Origin: a virus | Lineage: Duplodnaviria > Heunggongvirae > Uroviricota > Caudoviricetes | IMG/VR virus record: IMGVR_UViG_2541047839_000003 | Reading direction: 5' to 3' (one strand) | Length of the DNA: 6,204 bases | Position numbers and translations under genes: made by a program | The notes under the pieces: generated by a model | Databases searched by the model: none | What the model was told of the DNA's origin: nothing | What the model saw: only the letters and a program-made list of their open reading frames with translations | In this document: in pieces, positions 1,607 to 6,046 of the stretch | Layout of the letters: each line of letters opens with the position of its first letter | How positions within the stretch are numbered: position 1 is the first letter of the stretch

Positions 1607-2419
1607 ATGCGTAACAAAAAAACAACAGCTTTATTACTCTCTATCTTGTTATTATCTGGATGCACTTATCAATATGATAATAAGGCATCAACGGACGTTG
1701 AGTATAAATTCGAAAAAGAAAAAAGAGTACCTATCAACTCTGTTGGTGATTTTAGCAGCAAAATACTCACAGGTAAGGAATTTAATAGAATTATTGCATC
1801 AAAGATAGATGATGGTTCATGGCGTGGATATGTCGTTCACTCATTAACATACGCGCCATACAACAACGTTTTAACATCTCAAGGTTTGTCTATCCCTAGA
1901 AGTATCACATACTCAGGAACATATCTTAACCGTGATTTTGTTGAGAATAGCGGTAGTGATAGCGTGATAACATCTCGAGATATGTCTGGATGGTATGGTT
2001 TTCATGTCGATTCCTCTGAAATAACAAAGCATGGAAGCTATGTTGGTGCTAATGCTTTTGGAATATCTGCTGATGTAGAAGTGTTAAATACTTTAGGTGC
2101 CGAAATTATCTTTGGTAGTACACAAATAAATGAAGGGAACCCTGAAACAATATGGGCAGATATTGATATAAAAGGACAAATACCAAAAGATGTTAATGTA
2201 AAAGACCTTAGAATTGAATATTTAGCAAAGATAAATGGGTTAAGCAGTAATCATATTGATATAACATCACCTACTATTTTTAACCCGTCAGATATGAGCC
2301 ATAAAACTCAGGTTTTTATGGGTGAGTTATTAGCCGCGCGCCTAATAAATATTAAAACGGGAGAAATTTATCCAGTACAGCTAGAGTGGGTGTTCCGTTC
2401 GCGTGAGGCTTTCTTATAA
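1607..2419 (+). CDS. lipoprotein of unknown function (270 aa) on an AT-rich insert
   Basis: N-terminus MRNKKTTALLLSILLLSGC has a basic n-region, hydrophobic core and lipobox LSGC with Cys19, followed by Thr at +2. The mature part is rich in S/T/N/G/Y. The gene is visibly much more AT-rich than its flanks. Confidence 0.75.
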   Translation: MRNKKTTALLLSILLLSGCTYQYDNKASTDVEYKFEKEKRVPINSVGDFSSKILTGKEFNRIIASKIDDGSWRGYVVHSLTYAPYNNVLTSQGLSIPRSITYSGTYLNRDFVENSGSDSVITSRDMSGWYGFHVDSSEITKHGSYVGANAFGISADVEVLNTLGAEIIFGSTQINEGNPETIWADIDIKGQIPKDVNVKDLRIEYLAKINGLSSNHIDITSPTIFNPSDMSHKTQVFMGELLAARLINIKTGEIYPVQLEWVFRSREAFL

Positions 2420-2480
2420 CGGAACAATAACATTGTTCATGTTCTGATCGTTTGTTCAAGCAAACTATAAAAACACCTGT

Positions 2481-2500
2481 CCCCGTGACTGGTCACGGGG
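2481..2500. promoter_or_regulatory. perfect 20-bp GC-rich palindrome (operator or hairpin)
   Basis: CCCCGTGAC-TG-GTCACGGGG is fully self-complementary. It sits between the lipoprotein gene and the promoter-like element at 2521 and is not followed by a T-run on the plus strand. Confidence 0.4.
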
Positions 2501-2520
2501 TAAAATGTCTTTGCAAATTA

Positions 2521-2550
2521 TTGACGTGTGCGTCGTTTTGGAGGTAAAGT
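2521..2550 (+). promoter_or_regulatory. candidate sigma70 promoter of the anti-immunity operon
   Basis: TTGACG at 2521-2526, 18-bp spacer, TAAAGT at 2545-2550; predicted start near 2557. A short palindrome GACGtgtgCGTC (2523-2534) overlaps the -35 and spacer. Hexamer matching only. Confidence 0.3.
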
Positions 2551-2610
2551 CACCTCGCTGCGGTAAATCCCGCAGTCGGGACTTCGCAATCCTGGCAAAA
2601 CGAAGCGCAC

Positions 2611-2634
2611 AACACGCGCCAGCGTGTTTTTTTG
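2611..2634 (+). terminator. intrinsic terminator / attenuator in the operon leader
   Basis: Stem CACGC (2613-2617) / GCGTG (2622-2626) with loop GCCA, extendable by two A-T pairs, followed by a run of seven T (2627-2633). It lies inside the leader, upstream of the structured RNA element and the first ORF. Confidence 0.5.
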
Positions 2635-2664
2635 TGTGTATAGACCTGCGCATATCCGAATTAT

Positions 2665-2743
2665 GGTGGCTCAGGTGGGGCTGACTTCGGTCGGGCCGGT
2701 TTCTTCGTTTACCGGTATTGCGAACCCCGCCTGGGCTACCACC
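2665..2743 (+). ncRNA. candidate C4/CI-type immunity antisense RNA (structured ~80-nt element); boundaries approximate
   Basis: A long-range stem closes the element: GGTGG 2665-2669 with CCACC 2739-2743, CAGG 2672-2675 with CCTG 2730-2733, TGGGG 2676-2680 with CCCCG 2725-2729. It encloses two hairpins: CTGAC-TTCG-GTCGG (2681-2694) and CCGG-loop-CCGG (2696-2715). The second loop contains CTTCGTTT (2703-2710), complementary to AAACGAAG (2598-2605) in the leader and, with one G-U pair, to AAACGGAG (2784-2791) over the GGAG of the next ORF. Confidence 0.35.
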
Positions 2744-2799
2744 AATAAAGAGATTCGCAACTCTGGTGGTAGCACGACCAATAAAACGGAGTGCATACC

Positions 2800-2964
2800 A
2801 TGTTCAAATTCAAATTTGCGGCAGTCGTTCGCACAGACAAAAAGTCCCACATTCATCATCTTTCCACTATCGCGTCATCTGAACGGGAAGCTCGTCGCCA
2901 GTTCGCCAGCCGGTTTGTCCTGGTATTGTCTGCCCGTATTCCGGTGCGCGAGGTGGCTGCATGA
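2800..2964 (+). CDS. Icd-like small protein (54 aa), candidate cell-division inhibitor and first gene of the operon
   Basis: ORF MFKFKFAAVVRTDKKSHIHHLSTIASSEREARRQFASRFVLVLSARIPVREVAA, too short for the supplied track. GGAG at 2788-2791 lies 8 nt before ATG 2800. Its stop overlaps the next start (ATGA at 2961-2964). Size, position and the motif resemble Icd-like proteins as I recall them; not verified by alignment. Confidence 0.55.
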   Translation: MFKFKFAAVVRTDKKSHIHHLSTIASSEREARRQFASRFVLVLSARIPVREVAA

Positions 2965-3194
2965 ATCAGGTAAAAATGAACGCTGTTGGCCTGCTGGAAT
3001 CGTTGGATGAACGTCTGGCTCAGGTCTATGCGCTCGTATCATCAGCCCATCGGACAGTCTCCAGCTGTGAGGCGTCGATTTATCTCTCAGAAGCAGGGAA
3101 ACTCCTTCAAATTGCGTGTGAGTTAACACACGAAGCACAGGGGTATTCAGCATCTCTCTCGTCGCAATTGCAGCACAATAAGGAGGCCAAATGA
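2961..3194 (+). CDS. hypothetical small protein (77 aa), middle gene of the operon
   Basis: Listed ORF; GAGGTGG at 2951-2957 precedes ATG 2961. Its stop overlaps the next start (ATGA at 3191-3194). No family recognised; it occupies the position of an antirepressor accessory gene. Confidence 0.55.
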   Translation: MNQVKMNAVGLLESLDERLAQVYALVSSAHRTVSSCEASIYLSEAGKLLQIACELTHEAQGYSASLSSQLQHNKEAK

Positions 3195-3973
3195 GCGCGT
3201 TAGCTGTATTTTCGTTTCAGGAAGAGCATCAGGTTCGTGTAGTGATGATTAACGGTGAGCCGTGGTTTGTGGCTAAGGATGTATGTGATGCTTTAAGACT
3301 CGTTAATTCCCGGAAGGCGCTAATGTCTCTGGATGAGGATGAAAAGGGTGTAACTTTAAGTTACACCCCTGGCGGAGAGCAAAAGCTAAATATTATTTCA
3401 GAGTCAGGTCTATACACCCTGATCCTCCGCTGCCGTGACGCGGTGAAGCAAGGCACAACAGCTTGGCGGTTTCGCAAATGGGTAACGAACGAAGTCTTGC
3501 CCTCTATTCGCAAAAATGGAGAGTACGTTTACATCGAGCCTGAGCCAATGCGAGCAGCGGAGCCGTTGAACTGGAGGCAGAAAGAGTATCTGCGAGGGCT
3601 GATTAACGATATAGCACAAAGTTTTCAGTACCGAAATGCCTGGATTAGCGGTGTATGGTTAGCTTTGCGTCGGGCGTGTCGTAATCCATCCCCGAACCCC
3701 ATAACGGTTGATGATTTGCCAGCAATTACGGCAGAACTGCGCCGGATTTTGACGGCTGCTGAGTCGGCATTGGGGAACATGCGCACGTATGAACGAGAGT
3801 TGTTGCGTGATGTTGTTCGTGGGGGTAGGCGGAGTATGTCGTGTGGTGATTTACCCATCACCGATATTAACTCTGATCTGGAAAAGGCGTTACCCGCGCA
3901 TTTTGAACTGGCAGTTCAAAAACTTGAGCAGTTATCCGCGCAGCTAAAGCCAGCAGAAATCACCAATAAATAG
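3191..3973 (+). CDS. Bro-N domain protein, antirepressor-like (260 aa)
   Basis: N-terminal ~110 aa (FSFQEEHQVRVVMINGEPWFVAKDVCDALRL ... ESGLYTLILRCRDAVKQGTTAWRFRKWVTNEVLPSIRKNGEY) matches the Bro-N signature seen in phage Ant/KilA-type proteins. AGGAGG at 3181-3186 precedes ATG 3191; stop TAG 3971-3973. Confidence 0.85.
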   Translation: MSALAVFSFQEEHQVRVVMINGEPWFVAKDVCDALRLVNSRKALMSLDEDEKGVTLSYTPGGEQKLNIISESGLYTLILRCRDAVKQGTTAWRFRKWVTNEVLPSIRKNGEYVYIEPEPMRAAEPLNWRQKEYLRGLINDIAQSFQYRNAWISGVWLALRRACRNPSPNPITVDDLPAITAELRRILTAAESALGNMRTYERELLRDVVRGGRRSMSCGDLPITDINSDLEKALPAHFELAVQKLEQLSAQLKPAEITNK

Positions 3974-4109
3974 GGTTGACCAGCCCGAATTTATGCCCTT
4001 CTTAGAGAAGGGAAGCCTCGCAGTCGGGGCGGTGATGTCTGTGGTTGCAGCCGCGTTTCCTCCGTTACTTCTGCCCTTTGCAGGGGGCAGGCGAGGTAGG
4101 TCACACAAC

Positions 4110-4133
4110 AAGGCACCGTTAATTCGGTGCCTT
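4110..4133. terminator. hairpin between the convergent ant operon and telN, candidate bidirectional terminator
   Basis: AAGGCACCG (4110-4118), loop TTAATT, CGGTGCCTT (4125-4133): a 9-bp stem 12 nt beyond the telN stop. A T-rich tract follows on the plus strand (TTACTGTATGCTTT) and a U/G-rich tract on the minus strand. Confidence 0.45.
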
Positions 4134-4144
4134 TACTGTATGCT

Positions 4145-6046
4145 TTAACCGAAATATGTCAGCCATGCTAACTGCATTGCTGACATGGGGCTGTTTGCAC
4201 TGCCGGACCACGCATAATTCTGGCCATTATAATGAAACTCAACAACGTATGAGCCATCACCAATATTTCTCACCGGCTTAAATACCGGCTTAGATACAGG
4301 CGAAGAAGGTGCAGGCGGTTGCTGTTCTTCTACGCTATCTTCCTCTTCCTCTTCCTCTTCCTCTATCTCAATTTCGTCGTCATCCAGATCGTCATCCTCT
4401 GATAATTCATCCGCCAGTTCAGGTATTGCTTCCAGTTCTTCTTCGTCAGGCATAACGATTTCTGGAGTATCTATTTTCAGTTGCCATTGTCCGTTTTCGC
4501 CAACAAATTGCCCCAGAGCATCAGCAGCAAATTCCAGGTATCGACTAATCATTGTTGGGCTAAATTTGAACGCTCTTAGAGTGCTGTTCGTGATTTTTAT
4601 AGAGGGGTCCTGCTCTACCAGCTGCTTAACTGTGTTATGCAGACGAACCCCGGCATCTCCTCTGGCGAATCCAGGCATTTCGTCATCAAGCTGCTGCAAT
4701 GCTTCCAGCCTGGTATTTTCGTTTCCAGTATTTGGCCTCCATGTCTTTGAGAAGTTGGCCAGCTTGAATTGCTTATAGTGTAATTGAGTGTTTTCATCGT
4801 CATGGCCTAAAATTTCCATAAAGAAAACATCTTCATCTACGTTTTTCCAACGAGGATCTACGCGGAAAAACATTTCATACGCAATACGGGCATAAATAGC
4901 ACGACTATCTTTATAAACACGGCGGTCATCTTTGAAAAATGATTTAACCCACGGGTTAAAAGCCTTTGCTAATATGGCATTAATACGTCCGTTTTCAGAG
5001 CGTGTGTCGTTATCTCCATAACCTTTAACGACATCATCAAAATCAGATGCTGCTGGGCATGAGCGAAGTACATTTATTAAATAAACAAATGTTTTTGCTT
5101 CGCATAATGTATATATTTTTCTGGTTATATTATCAGAAGTTCTTTTTTTAGCTTGGCCTAAAAAATCAACGGTATACTTACCAGAAACAGTAAATGTACC
5201 TTGATACATAATCTCAATCATTCGTCTTCCTGACAATGCAGCAAGTGCAAATGCCAAAGGAGCCATACCTGAACGAGTGTTTAGATTATTTAATGTAGCA
5301 GGGCTATTTATAATATCGTAAATAGCTTGCATATATTTAGGGTAATCAATGACCACCACGTTACGTTTCTTATTGTGCAGAACGTCCGCCCATCGTTGCT
5401 GGATAGATGCACGTTCGGCAGGGCTTAGTTGAAGATGATAGAGAATCTCATGGTTAACTTTTAGCTGATTCAACTCCTCAAGTAAGGCAGATCCTTGCTG
5501 TAGTAATTTATATAAATAATCGCGCTTATCTTTCCAGTTATCGCTAGTTAAATCAGAAATGGCGAATTGCCACTCTTTATATTTATTTGATAATTTCAAT
5601 AACTTATTATGACTTTTGTTATCGCCAATTCTGATATTAGATAAATCTTCTGATAGAGGGAGAATTAATTTTAATTTTGCCTGTAAAGCTGACATTCTCT
5701 GGCGAATATCGGCAGCAGGTAGAGAAAGCCATGACAATAGCTCCTCATTATATAAAGGATACTTTTCAGATAGGCGATGTATATTTTTTTCAAAGCTATG
5801 ATGAAGTTTATCATCAAACCGTTTTCTGGCCCTGCTCATATAGGCATTGAATGTGTTGGCTGTAATTCTTTTTTCTAATCCTTTCCCCCTAAACTTTCGC
5901 TTGTCATTAAATAATGCATTTTTAAATTTTAATGCAACAGCCTTTATTTTTTTTGTTTTCTCCCCTTGAGGACGGTCAGAGTTATCTATTGACTCAACAT
6001 CGCTAACAAGTGAGTTTATTAATTCACCGATTTTTACTTTGCTCAT
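4145..6046 (-). CDS. telN: protelomerase (telomere resolvase), TelN/TelK family, complete, 633 aa
   Basis: The translation is recognisably close along its length to N15 TelN as I recall it (MSKVKIGELIN..., KRITANTFNAYMSRARKRFDDKLHHSF, TRSGMAPLAFALAA.SGRRMIEIM, RSENGRINAILAKAFNPWVKSF, ILGHDDENTQLHYKQFKLANFS). His423-Tyr424 (Tyr codon at 4775-4777) sits where I recall the TelN catalytic tyrosine. The start is preceded by AGGAGAGG on the minus strand; stop TAA at 4145-4147. Confidence 0.93.
   Translation of the reverse strand: MSKVKIGELINSLVSDVESIDNSDRPQGEKTKKIKAVALKFKNALFNDKRKFRGKGLEKRITANTFNAYMSRARKRFDDKLHHSFEKNIHRLSEKYPLYNEELLSWLSLPAADIRQRMSALQAKLKLILPLSEDLSNIRIGDNKSHNKLLKLSNKYKEWQFAISDLTSDNWKDKRDYLYKLLQQGSALLEELNQLKVNHEILYHLQLSPAERASIQQRWADVLHNKKRNVVVIDYPKYMQAIYDIINSPATLNNLNTRSGMAPLAFALAALSGRRMIEIMYQGTFTVSGKYTVDFLGQAKKRTSDNITRKIYTLCEAKTFVYLINVLRSCPAASDFDDVVKGYGDNDTRSENGRINAILAKAFNPWVKSFFKDDRRVYKDSRAIYARIAYEMFFRVDPRWKNVDEDVFFMEILGHDDENTQLHYKQFKLANFSKTWRPNTGNENTRLEALQQLDDEMPGFARGDAGVRLHNTVKQLVEQDPSIKITNSTLRAFKFSPTMISRYLEFAADALGQFVGENGQWQLKIDTPEIVMPDEEELEAIPELADELSEDDDLDDDEIEIEEEEEEEEDSVEEQQPPAPSSPVSKPVFKPVRNIGDGSYVVEFHYNGQNYAWSGSANSPMSAMQLAWLTYFG
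4338..4363 (-). repeat. (CTTCCT)4 hexamer repeat encoding an eight-Glu run in the telN linker
   Basis: TCTTCCTCTTCCTCTTCCTCTTCCTC on the plus strand corresponds to (GAG GAA)4 on the coding strand, inside the acidic segment DDDEIEIEEEEEEEEDSVEE. Confidence 0.8.

Follow-up and report, generated by a model that had tools for sequence, protein, structure and literature searches.

The question raised by the locus at positions 2481-3973 of the viral sequence IMGVR_UViG_2541047839_000003 is whether its three overlapping open reading frames (ORFs) and the structured RNA preceding them form an anti-immunity switch, and, if so, how that switch is kept silent. The original prediction had likened the locus to the immA operon of N15 and the immI operon of P1, and all of the parts it listed (a promoter, a structured leader, an Icd-like ORF, and antirepressor genes) were found in the window (the whole stretch of DNA that was analyzed, 6204 bases). 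The source of the window is an N15-like linear phage-plasmid of Escherichia, and N15 immA was found to be the syntenic homologue of the locus. We consider it very likely that the locus is the immA anti-immunity operon of this phage-plasmid and that its regulation follows the pattern of N15, P1, and P7.

The position of the locus gives the first part of the answer. The locus sits between the 3′ end of the replication gene repA (the ORF at 17-604 encodes the C-terminal end of the protein; phrog_4913) and a convergent protelomerase gene, telN: the minus-strand ORF at 4145-6046 (633 aa) showed four protelomerase domains of the TelK/ResT proteins (TelK_N, muzzle, catalytic, and stirrup) in a Pfam search. 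These flanking genes bear out the suggested phage-plasmid context. The same synteny is seen in N15, YDC107_1, phiKO2, and KpLi5, and the order in N15, namely repA (gene 37), small genes, and then genes 32-31-30 toward the protelomerase gene 29, is that of the window. In megablast searches, 138 plasmid records of PLSDB matched the window, and eight plasmids, found in E. coli, E. albertii, and E. fergusonii, matched it over the full length at 95-98% identity. When the region 2400-4150 was compared with phages, the top match was Ravinvirus YDC107_1 (91%), and N15 matched the leader part (the cA region) at approximately 80% nucleotide identity. In a published survey of repA-telN loci, 210 of the 271 loci were N15-like and were set aside as known antirepression (PMC10432266).

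Besides the position between repA and telN, the locus shares with N15 immA the gene order, the 4-nt overlaps between the genes, and the Rfam pair of an isrK-like and a C4/CA RNA; at the protein level, the identities are 94% for Icd, 65% for AntA, and 74% for AntB. The N15 operon was reportedly laid out by Ravin, Svarchevsky and Deho in 1999 as Pa - CA RNA - icd - antA - antB. In both N15 and phiKO2, immA is an icd-antA-antB operon (PMC4488713, PMC10612081).

Three ORFs of 54, 77, and 260 aa lie on the same strand in the focused region (Table 1); the first of them is counted here from the ATG at 2800, and the ORF listed by the program begins at the GTG at 2791. As had been noticed from the sequence, ATGA overlaps join the three ORFs, and they are located at 2961-2964 and 3191-3194. 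The Shine-Dalgarno (SD) sequences for the second and third ORFs are GAGGTGG (2949-2955) and AAGGAGG (3179-3185), respectively, and each lies inside the upstream ORF. Since the annotations of N15, phiKO2, and KpLi5 show identical 4-nt overlaps, these are a conserved feature and not a product of chance.

The suggestion that the 54-aa ORF is Icd-like was verified by its match to the NCBIfam model NF033153. It shares 51 of its 54 residues with the aligned part of N15 gp32 (94% identity by tblastn), and PGAP annotates the same 165-nt coding sequence in pEA8_3, a close relative. A Pfam search of this ORF gave no match to an Icd model and returned only a sub-threshold LtuB match; thus, the assignment rests on NCBIfam and on the identity with N15. 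Gene 32 of N15 (locus L001, 3748-4038; 'cA: secondary immunity repressor' in GenBank U63086) is annotated as a protein of 96 aa whose reading frame runs across the gene of the C4/CA RNA, and its last 54 codons, which are the Icd-like ORF, are the only part supported by NCBIfam and PGAP. The PHROG label 'transcriptional repressor' for the Icd family was apparently inherited from this old N15 annotation.

The 77-aa ORF in the middle had been regarded as lacking a recognizable family. It is in fact the homologue of AntA: in addition to its identity with N15 gp31, it matches phrog_6301 and phrog_10889, and the latter is labeled 'anti-repressor'. The phiKO2 record names the three corresponding products Icd, 'antirepressor AntA' (Gp28, similar to N15 AntA), and 'auxiliary anti-repressor AntB'. 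The AlphaFold2 model of AntA is a two-helix hairpin (helices 3-32 and 36-76) with a predicted local distance difference test score of 85.9. A word-indexed protein search with AntA found close relatives only and no distant family, and an exhaustive search found eight representatives among 1.84 billion representative proteins; AntA is therefore a narrow family. No sequence relative of AntA was found in the PDB, and Foldseek returned generic helical hairpins with a best E of 0.2, so that no structural homologue is claimed. On the basis of these sequence relationships, the 77-aa AntA homologue is probably the antirepressor.

For the 260-aa ORF, the proposed Bro-N domain was confirmed by Pfam (PF02498; 77.8 bits with a cut-off of 25.6, covering profile positions 1-96 of 96), whereas the antirepressor role proposed for it probably belongs mainly to AntA, judging from the phiKO2 record and the reviews (PMC4488713, PMC10612081). 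With the Icd-like and Bro-N matches both found, neither of the homology-based refutations named alongside the prediction held. Its identity with N15 gp30 extends over the full length, and no sequence relative was found in the PDB. Among the profile searches suggested together with the prediction, those for Icd-like and Bro-N proteins were positive, and those for KilAC and AntA/AntB were not: Pfam gave neither a KilAC nor an AntA/AntB domain in the three proteins at E ≤ 0.1. Despite the similar names, antA and antB of N15 have no connection with the Pfam AntA/AntB family.

It is conceivable, though improbable, that the antirepressor is the Bro-N protein (3191-3973), with the 77-aa protein as an accessory or a chaperone. 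Bro-N proteins occur in many PHROG anti-repressor Ant families, AntB itself matches PHROG Ant families, and a full-length antB is present in 33 of 54 distinct related regions that encode AntA. However, Icd and AntA are encoded together in all 54 of these regions, while AntB is reduced to a stub of 43-53 residues in 10 of them and was undetected in another 11, some of which possibly end within the locus. The co-occurrence of Icd and AntA, together with the frequent truncation or non-detection of AntB, indicates that icd-antA is the conserved core. In nine loci of close relatives (L011, L014-L016, L018, L021, L033, L111, and L113; approximately 1731-1895 in L011), an internal deletion leaves an antB stub of 54 aa and removes the RNA element in the 3′ untranslated region (3′-UTR). 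Since icd and antA are intact in antB-deleted close relatives, antB is dispensable in nature. The literature points in the same direction: lysogenization was abolished by the antA gene of a Yersinia telomere phage on its own (PMC10612081), PY54 does not have antB (PMC4488713), and the function of AntB has not been elucidated according to the reviews (PMC4488713, PMC10612081). Because the literature and records on N15 and phiKO2 call AntA the antirepressor and describe AntB as 'auxiliary' or of unelucidated function, AntB is probably not the main antirepressor, or effector, of the locus.

We then ask what lies ahead of icd. The leader of approximately 240 nt starting at 2557 folds far better than shuffled sequences (z = −5.3; 0/200 shuffles), and the prediction of a structured leader RNA was correct in this respect; however, three elements exist there and not one. 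One is an IsrK-like RNA that carries the target copies a1 and b1 and ends in a terminator. Another is a C4/CA antisense RNA. The last is a pair of targets, a2 and b2, over the ribosome-binding site (RBS) of icd. The component hairpins and motifs are listed in Table 1, together with the other features of the locus.

Table 1. Positions of the features found in and around the anti-immunity locus (window coordinates; +, strand of the operon;., no strand assigned)
Feature	Position	Strand	Description and evidence
Palindrome	2481-2500	.	CCCCGTGAC-TG-GTCACGGGG; from its center, ~66 nt to the predicted transcription start downstream
Promoter-like site, counterpart of N15 Pa	2521-2550	+	TTGACG 2521-2526, 18-nt spacer, TAAAGT 2545-2550; sigma-70-like consensus scan
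IsrK-like leader RNA	2557-2633	+	Rfam isrK (RF01394) at 2557-2632, 52.8 bits, gathering 50
Leader hairpin 1	2557-2576	+	100% paired, 5/7 pairs compensatory
Leader hairpin 2	2577-2594	+	a1 (TTCGCAA, 2583-2589) in loop
b1, single-stranded	2598-2605	+	AAACGAAG; motif position in predicted fold
Intrinsic terminator	stem 2611-2628, run of seven T 2627-2633	+	Terminator scan; stem 98.7% paired across relatives
C4/CA-type antisense RNA	2659-2746	+	Rfam C4 (RF01695), 82.3 bits, gathering 45, E 1.2e-15, model positions 1-87 of 87
C4 closing stem, 17 bp, then CCA	2664-2680 with 2725-2741	+	Minimum free energy fold; 100% paired
C4 hairpin 1 (UUCG)	2681-2694	+	99.5% paired, 4/5 pairs compensatory
C4 hairpin 2	2695-2716	+	b′ CTTCGTTT (2703-2710) in loop
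a′, single-stranded	2718-2724	+	TTGCGAA; after C4 hairpin 2
mRNA target region	2749-2801	+	a2 and b2 hairpins
a2 hairpin	2749-2764	+	a2 TTCGCAA (2754-2760) in loop
icd-start hairpin (translation initiation region)	2766-2775 with 2791-2801	+	Encloses b2, icd SD, AUG 2800; 93.7% paired, 4/9 compensatory
icd-like gene, first cistron	2800-2964	+	54 aa; NCBIfam NF033153 'host cell division inhibitor Icd-like', 67 bits, cut-off 25
antA homologue	2961-3194	+	77 aa; 65% identical to N15 gp31, E 5e-31
antB homologue	3191-3973	+	260 aa; N-terminal Bro-N domain at residues 14-104, then a C-terminal half without a named family
Conserved structured 3′-UTR element	3977-4103	+	Fold z = −3.57
Hairpin	4110-4133	.	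AAGGCACCG-TTAATT-CGGTGCCTT; between convergent antB and telN; conserved with compensatory changes

The mutual relationship among these elements is one of complementarity. The a′ sequence TTGCGAA (2718) is exactly complementary to TTCGCAA both at 2583 (a1) and at 2754 (a2), and b′ (CTTCGTTT, 2703) is complementary to AAACGAAG (2598) and to AAACGGAG (2784; one G-U pair). The latter, b2 (2784-2791), covers the SD sequence GGAG of icd at 2788-2791. Thus, as in the C4 family, a′ and b′ are complementary over 7-8 nt to a2 and b2 at a downstream RBS and also to a1 and b1 located upstream. The pair of C4 and isrK matches in Rfam is also found in the cA region of N15, in phiKO2, in PY54, and in an Stx2 phage, and one GenBank record already annotates both RNAs. 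The isrK score in the window is just above the gathering threshold, and the relatives score 59-67 bits. A 54-aa ORF starting with TTG (2718-2882) overlaps the C4 RNA in another frame; it was dismissed as mechanical.

The transcription start was predicted near G2557, where the Rfam isrK match also begins. Among the 43 relatives described below, the −35 hexamer of the promoter-like site hardly varies, and the −10 hexamer keeps T106, A107, and T111 (columns of alignment A2) without exception. Neither a C1-type operator nor any other recognizable repressor operator was seen at 2521-2550. A promoter scan gave no second promoter between the terminator and the C4 RNA, and this stretch is not conserved in the 43 leaders; the sequence therefore suggests that the C4 RNA and the mRNA would both come from terminator read-through.

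If the switch is intact, the recognition elements and their targets should have changed together. The relatives were collected from annotated phage records and from an IMG/VR scan for the conserved 5′ stem of C4, filtered by a leader profile, and 43 distinct leaders (window positions 2440-2815 and loci L001-L142) make up alignment A2. Seven a′ variants, 15 b′ variants, and 25 combinations of them were found. In every one of the 43 leaders, a′ pairs over at least 7 contiguous nt with its own a1 and its own a2, whereas cross-type pairings of a′ average 3.7 and 4.2 nt, and merely 2-4.5% of them reach 7 nt. All 7 pairs of the a′-a2 helix are formed in the 43 sequences (100% paired), and five of them have changed on both sides. 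Pairing over the whole structure is 94.2%, as compared with 38-43% in slid controls, and 0/500 shuffles reach the observed values. The a1-a′ pairs are not countable on A2, because a 2-nt insertion in the a1 loop of the window shifts the register (46% paired, with the signal at slide +1); this pairing was taken from the complementarity within each sequence instead.

The contrast is also clear among close relatives whose Icd proteins are 98-100% identical: their recognition windows are 54-75% identical as against 86-92% for the remaining leader, and four specificities occur among these phages. N15 provides a further case. The window has UUGCGAA as a′ and CUUCGUUU as b′, whereas N15 has UUGAGAA and CUUCUUGU, and both targets have changed to match. 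Since a′ and b′ differ among the relatives and the two target copies have followed these differences, the antisense switch must be intact, and it exists in many specificities. This pattern is the one expected if C4 pairing with both target copies is selected and specificity diversifies. The heteroimmunity of P1 and P7 is described in the same terms, with recognition loops carrying the specificity, in what later papers cite from Citron and Schuster 1990 (PMC2864571, PMC3632133).

The same data bear on the idea that the locus is an inactive relic carried between repA and telN, which we regard as very improbable. The three ORFs are intact, every RNA helix and both antisense-target pairings have been kept with compensatory changes across the 43 leaders, and many complete Escherichia plasmids carry copies of 95-98% identity.

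These elements can be assembled into a mechanism on the model of N15 and P1. Transcription would start near 2557 from the promoter, at which no repressor operator was recognized and which would be active in the lysogen. Most transcripts would end at the terminator at 2611-2633 and give an IsrK-like RNA of approximately 76 nt with the a1/b1 target copies. Read-through transcripts would carry the C4/CA RNA (approximately 2664-2744), in which the stem and the CCA after it resemble the acceptor end of a tRNA. The C4 RNA of P1 is an RNase P substrate, and RNase P probably releases the C4/CA RNA here as well. The mature antisense RNA would then pair, through loop b′ and the single-stranded a′, with b2 and a2 on transcripts that read through further. 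Translation of icd would be blocked in this way, because b2 includes the icd SD at the edge of the conserved hairpin that holds the AUG. The genes antA and antB would be silent too, through their ATGA coupling to icd and through the exposure of the untranslated transcript to Rho. When the antisense control is overcome, Icd would block division, AntA would inactivate the CB-type repressor, and the Bro-N protein AntB would help. The repressor of N15 is non-cleavable, and N15 is subject to antirepression (PMC10432266). The RNase P processing, the Rho polarity, the functions of the proteins, and any sponge role of a1/b1 in this scheme are modeled on the work on N15, P1, and Gifsy-1.

As compared by description, the immI operon of P1 and P7 (c4 - icd - ant1/ant2) shares with the locus a C4 RNA of the same Rfam family, the a1/b1 copies upstream and the a2/b2 copies downstream, a b2-type site on the icd RBS, and an Icd-like first cistron coupled to antirepressor genes. 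The differences are that the window has a small AntA and a Bro-N AntB where P1 has Ant1/Ant2, that it is without a recognized C1-type operator, and that it has an IsrK-type terminator between a1/b1 and C4.

Several points weigh against the mechanism described above. One is that promoter activity, terminator efficiency, the processing sites, Rho polarity, and the activities of the proteins are all predictions by analogy. Another is that the b′-b2 pairing is short (6-8 bp) and discriminates among types less strongly than a′. The Rfam model c4-a1b1 (RF03163) also matched 2544-2598 below its gathering threshold (24.8 vs 46.7 bits), although it passes in phiKO2 (49.1 bits); nevertheless, the a1 and b1 sequences are present in the window and complementary to C4 despite the low score. 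AntB is truncated or undetected in 21 of the 54 related regions. The last point is that the homologous IsrK leader of Gifsy-1 is an activator (PMC4825925), so that the a1/b1 leader of the window may have an active role and not simply be a by-product.

This last point leads to the possibility of IsrK-type positive control. In that case, the terminated leader RNA (2557-2633) would act in trans, via a1/b1, on C4 or on the long transcript and would turn on the translation of icd-antA-antB; the ratio of leader to C4, set by terminator read-through and RNA stability, would then be decisive, and not C4 alone. We regard the dominance of such control as a possibility to be taken seriously, though not as the expected outcome. 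The isrK match is above the gathering threshold, the terminator hairpin is conserved, and a1/b1 are perfect decoys for a′/b′ in 43 of the 43 relatives, which speaks for selection on the upstream copies to pair. In Gifsy-1 of Salmonella, the translation of anrP increases over 100-fold when IsrK is supplied in trans, and the processed RNA STnc1160 is located there as C4 is here (PMC4825925). The IsrK-like seqA was also reported to be essential for establishing P4 lysogeny (PMC3632133). However, the authors of the Gifsy-1 work attribute the activation to a change in the folding of the long mRNA around orf45; the window has no equivalent of orf45, and its icd lies downstream of C4 and not within it. 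Moreover, control of this type is compatible with the C4-based silencing and would add an input to it.

The locus resembles the Gifsy-1 module (isrK-orf45-anrP-isrJ; PMC4825925) in several ways. Both begin with a small leader RNA of the isrK family, whose terminator is leaky in Gifsy-1 and would be so here, and a processed RNA, putatively so in the window, comes next. In both, translation of the antirepressor is coupled to that of a short ORF ahead of it, and another RNA element follows the antirepressor gene. They differ in that the short ORF of the window is Icd-like and comes after C4, not inside it, and in that two proteins that are not AnrP follow. No Rfam match to isrJ was found in the window at E ≤ 1, and a different conserved 3′-UTR structure occupies the analogous position. 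Thus, the leader belongs to the isrK family, yet the locus is not of the Gifsy-1 type, since the isrJ match is missing and the downstream genes differ. The output in Gifsy-1 is AntQ expression, and by analogy with N15 it would be repressor inactivation in a plasmid prophage here.

The level at which the CA RNA acts also needs to be considered. It may act chiefly on transcription, as the CI RNA of P4 does, with the pairing at a1/b1 and a2/b2 provoking premature termination and the RBS occlusion being secondary; we think this rather unlikely. The target-antisense-target architecture is the same as that of seqA-CI-seqC in P4 (PMC4825925, PMC3632133). An intrinsic terminator directly follows a1/b1. 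In addition, the N15 study reportedly stressed premature termination. However, b2 overlaps the icd SD in the window and in the relatives, which points to translational occlusion, with termination following from the lack of translation. Translational occlusion with termination as its consequence was reportedly described for P1 by Biere, Citron and Schuster in 1992. The sequence alone cannot separate a translational from a transcriptional mechanism.

P4 immunity (seqA - CI RNA - seqC) resembles the locus in having a processed antisense RNA, putatively so in the window, between two target copies on one transcript, and IsrK/C4 has been described as structurally similar to seqA/CI of P4 and to the systems of P1, P7, and N15 (PMC3632133). 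It differs in being a primary immunity that stops the transcription of replication genes, whereas the system in the window guards an antirepressor operon and involves no P4 proteins. The slot between repA and telN is also shared by the TF-smORF (VqmA-Qtip) modules of Vibrio linear plasmid phages, as would be the logic by which a small protein inactivates a cI-type repressor without repressor cleavage (PMC10432266). There, a transcription factor and not an antisense RNA switches the module, and the small proteins are unrelated in sequence.

Additional C4 genes were observed in two related contigs. Each carries two extra, orphan C4 genes in tandem: one contig has them at 7310-7397 and 7409-7496 on the plus strand (L090), and the other at approximately 385-580 on the minus strand (L076). 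All of them pass the Rfam threshold, and they lie between an intrinsic terminator and the immA promoter. Their a′ sequences, AUUCUCAC and AUUCCUAC, belong to the classes of other phage-plasmids and not to that of the resident operon. These orphan C4s may cross-silence foreign antirepressor operons.

The first base of the region, 2481, is also the first base of the palindrome listed in Table 1, which lies upstream of the −35 hexamer and outside the transcript. The core of this palindrome is invariant across approximately 30 relatives, and the flanking bases vary. The 14-mer CGTGACTGGTCACG was found in exactly three copies in N15 (28549-28562, 33236-33249, and 39268-39281) and in three copies at equivalent places in pEA8_3 (475, 6228, and 42633): in the 5′ part of repA, directly before the RBS of a small gene resembling N15 gene 47, and upstream of the immA promoter. 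Two identities were considered for the palindrome and rejected. It is not a SopB centromere site (inverted repeat, IR), for which the published sequence is TGCGACCnnGGTCGCA (PMC7205306, Table 4); this sequence occurs four times in N15, five times in pEA8_3, and not at all in the window. Nor does its sequence resemble a CB operator, as the annotated operators of N15 hold sites of the TTATAGC-TG-GCTATAA type. The palindrome CGTGACTGGTCACG could link anti-immunity, replication, and another small gene.

At the 3′ end of the operon, RNAalifold analysis of 11 distinct sequences gave 48 pairs for the 3′-UTR element; of these, 12 are compensatory, and the G-U pairs point to the plus strand. This element (3977-4103) has no match in Rfam at E ≤ 1, and it is absent from the Klebsiella relatives phiKO2 and KpLi5. 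The hairpin that follows it (4110-4133) is probably a bidirectional terminator; the phiKO2 record gives a 'putative bidirectional' terminator at the equivalent place.

Upstream of the promoter, the window differs from N15. It has an AT-rich ORF of 270 aa at 1607-2419 on the plus strand (29-39% GC, as compared with approximately 50% in the neighbors), whose product starts with a lipoprotein-like signal (LLSGC), and for which neither a Pfam nor an NCBIfam family and only a weak PHROG match were found. Because N15 carries other genes (33-36) at that position, this ORF is probably a moron.

Taken together, the locus shows every feature by which membership in the N15 immA, C4 RNA, and Bro-N families can be judged from sequence, and it represents, in well-preserved form, a system already characterized in N15, P1, and P7, with an antisense specificity differing from that of N15. 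The current understanding of the anti-immunity system is unchanged by these findings. What they add for this family is of three kinds. With an intact immA orthologue recognized, three "hypothetical protein" calls become parts of one coherent regulatory module; the small helical protein, and not the Bro-N protein, is pointed to as the likely effector; and the covarying loops and targets amount to a natural mutagenesis experiment, which supports the P1-type mechanism and predicts heteroimmunity groups. We tentatively suggest, as a speculation more likely to prove wrong than right, that a′ and b′ form a fast-evolving, reassorting specificity code that decides which N15-like phage-plasmids silence each other's antirepressor operons. 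If this were true, the threshold for switching would be set by the IsrK-like a1/b1 leader, which would serve as a built-in sponge. The tandem orphan C4 genes would then be means of attack or defense in the competition between co-resident phage-plasmids, and the three-copy palindrome and the 3′-UTR RNA would be additional elements that feed into the switch or respond to it. By analogy with N15, the locus would be the lysogeny override switch of the N15-like phage-plasmids that are common in Escherichia and Klebsiella.

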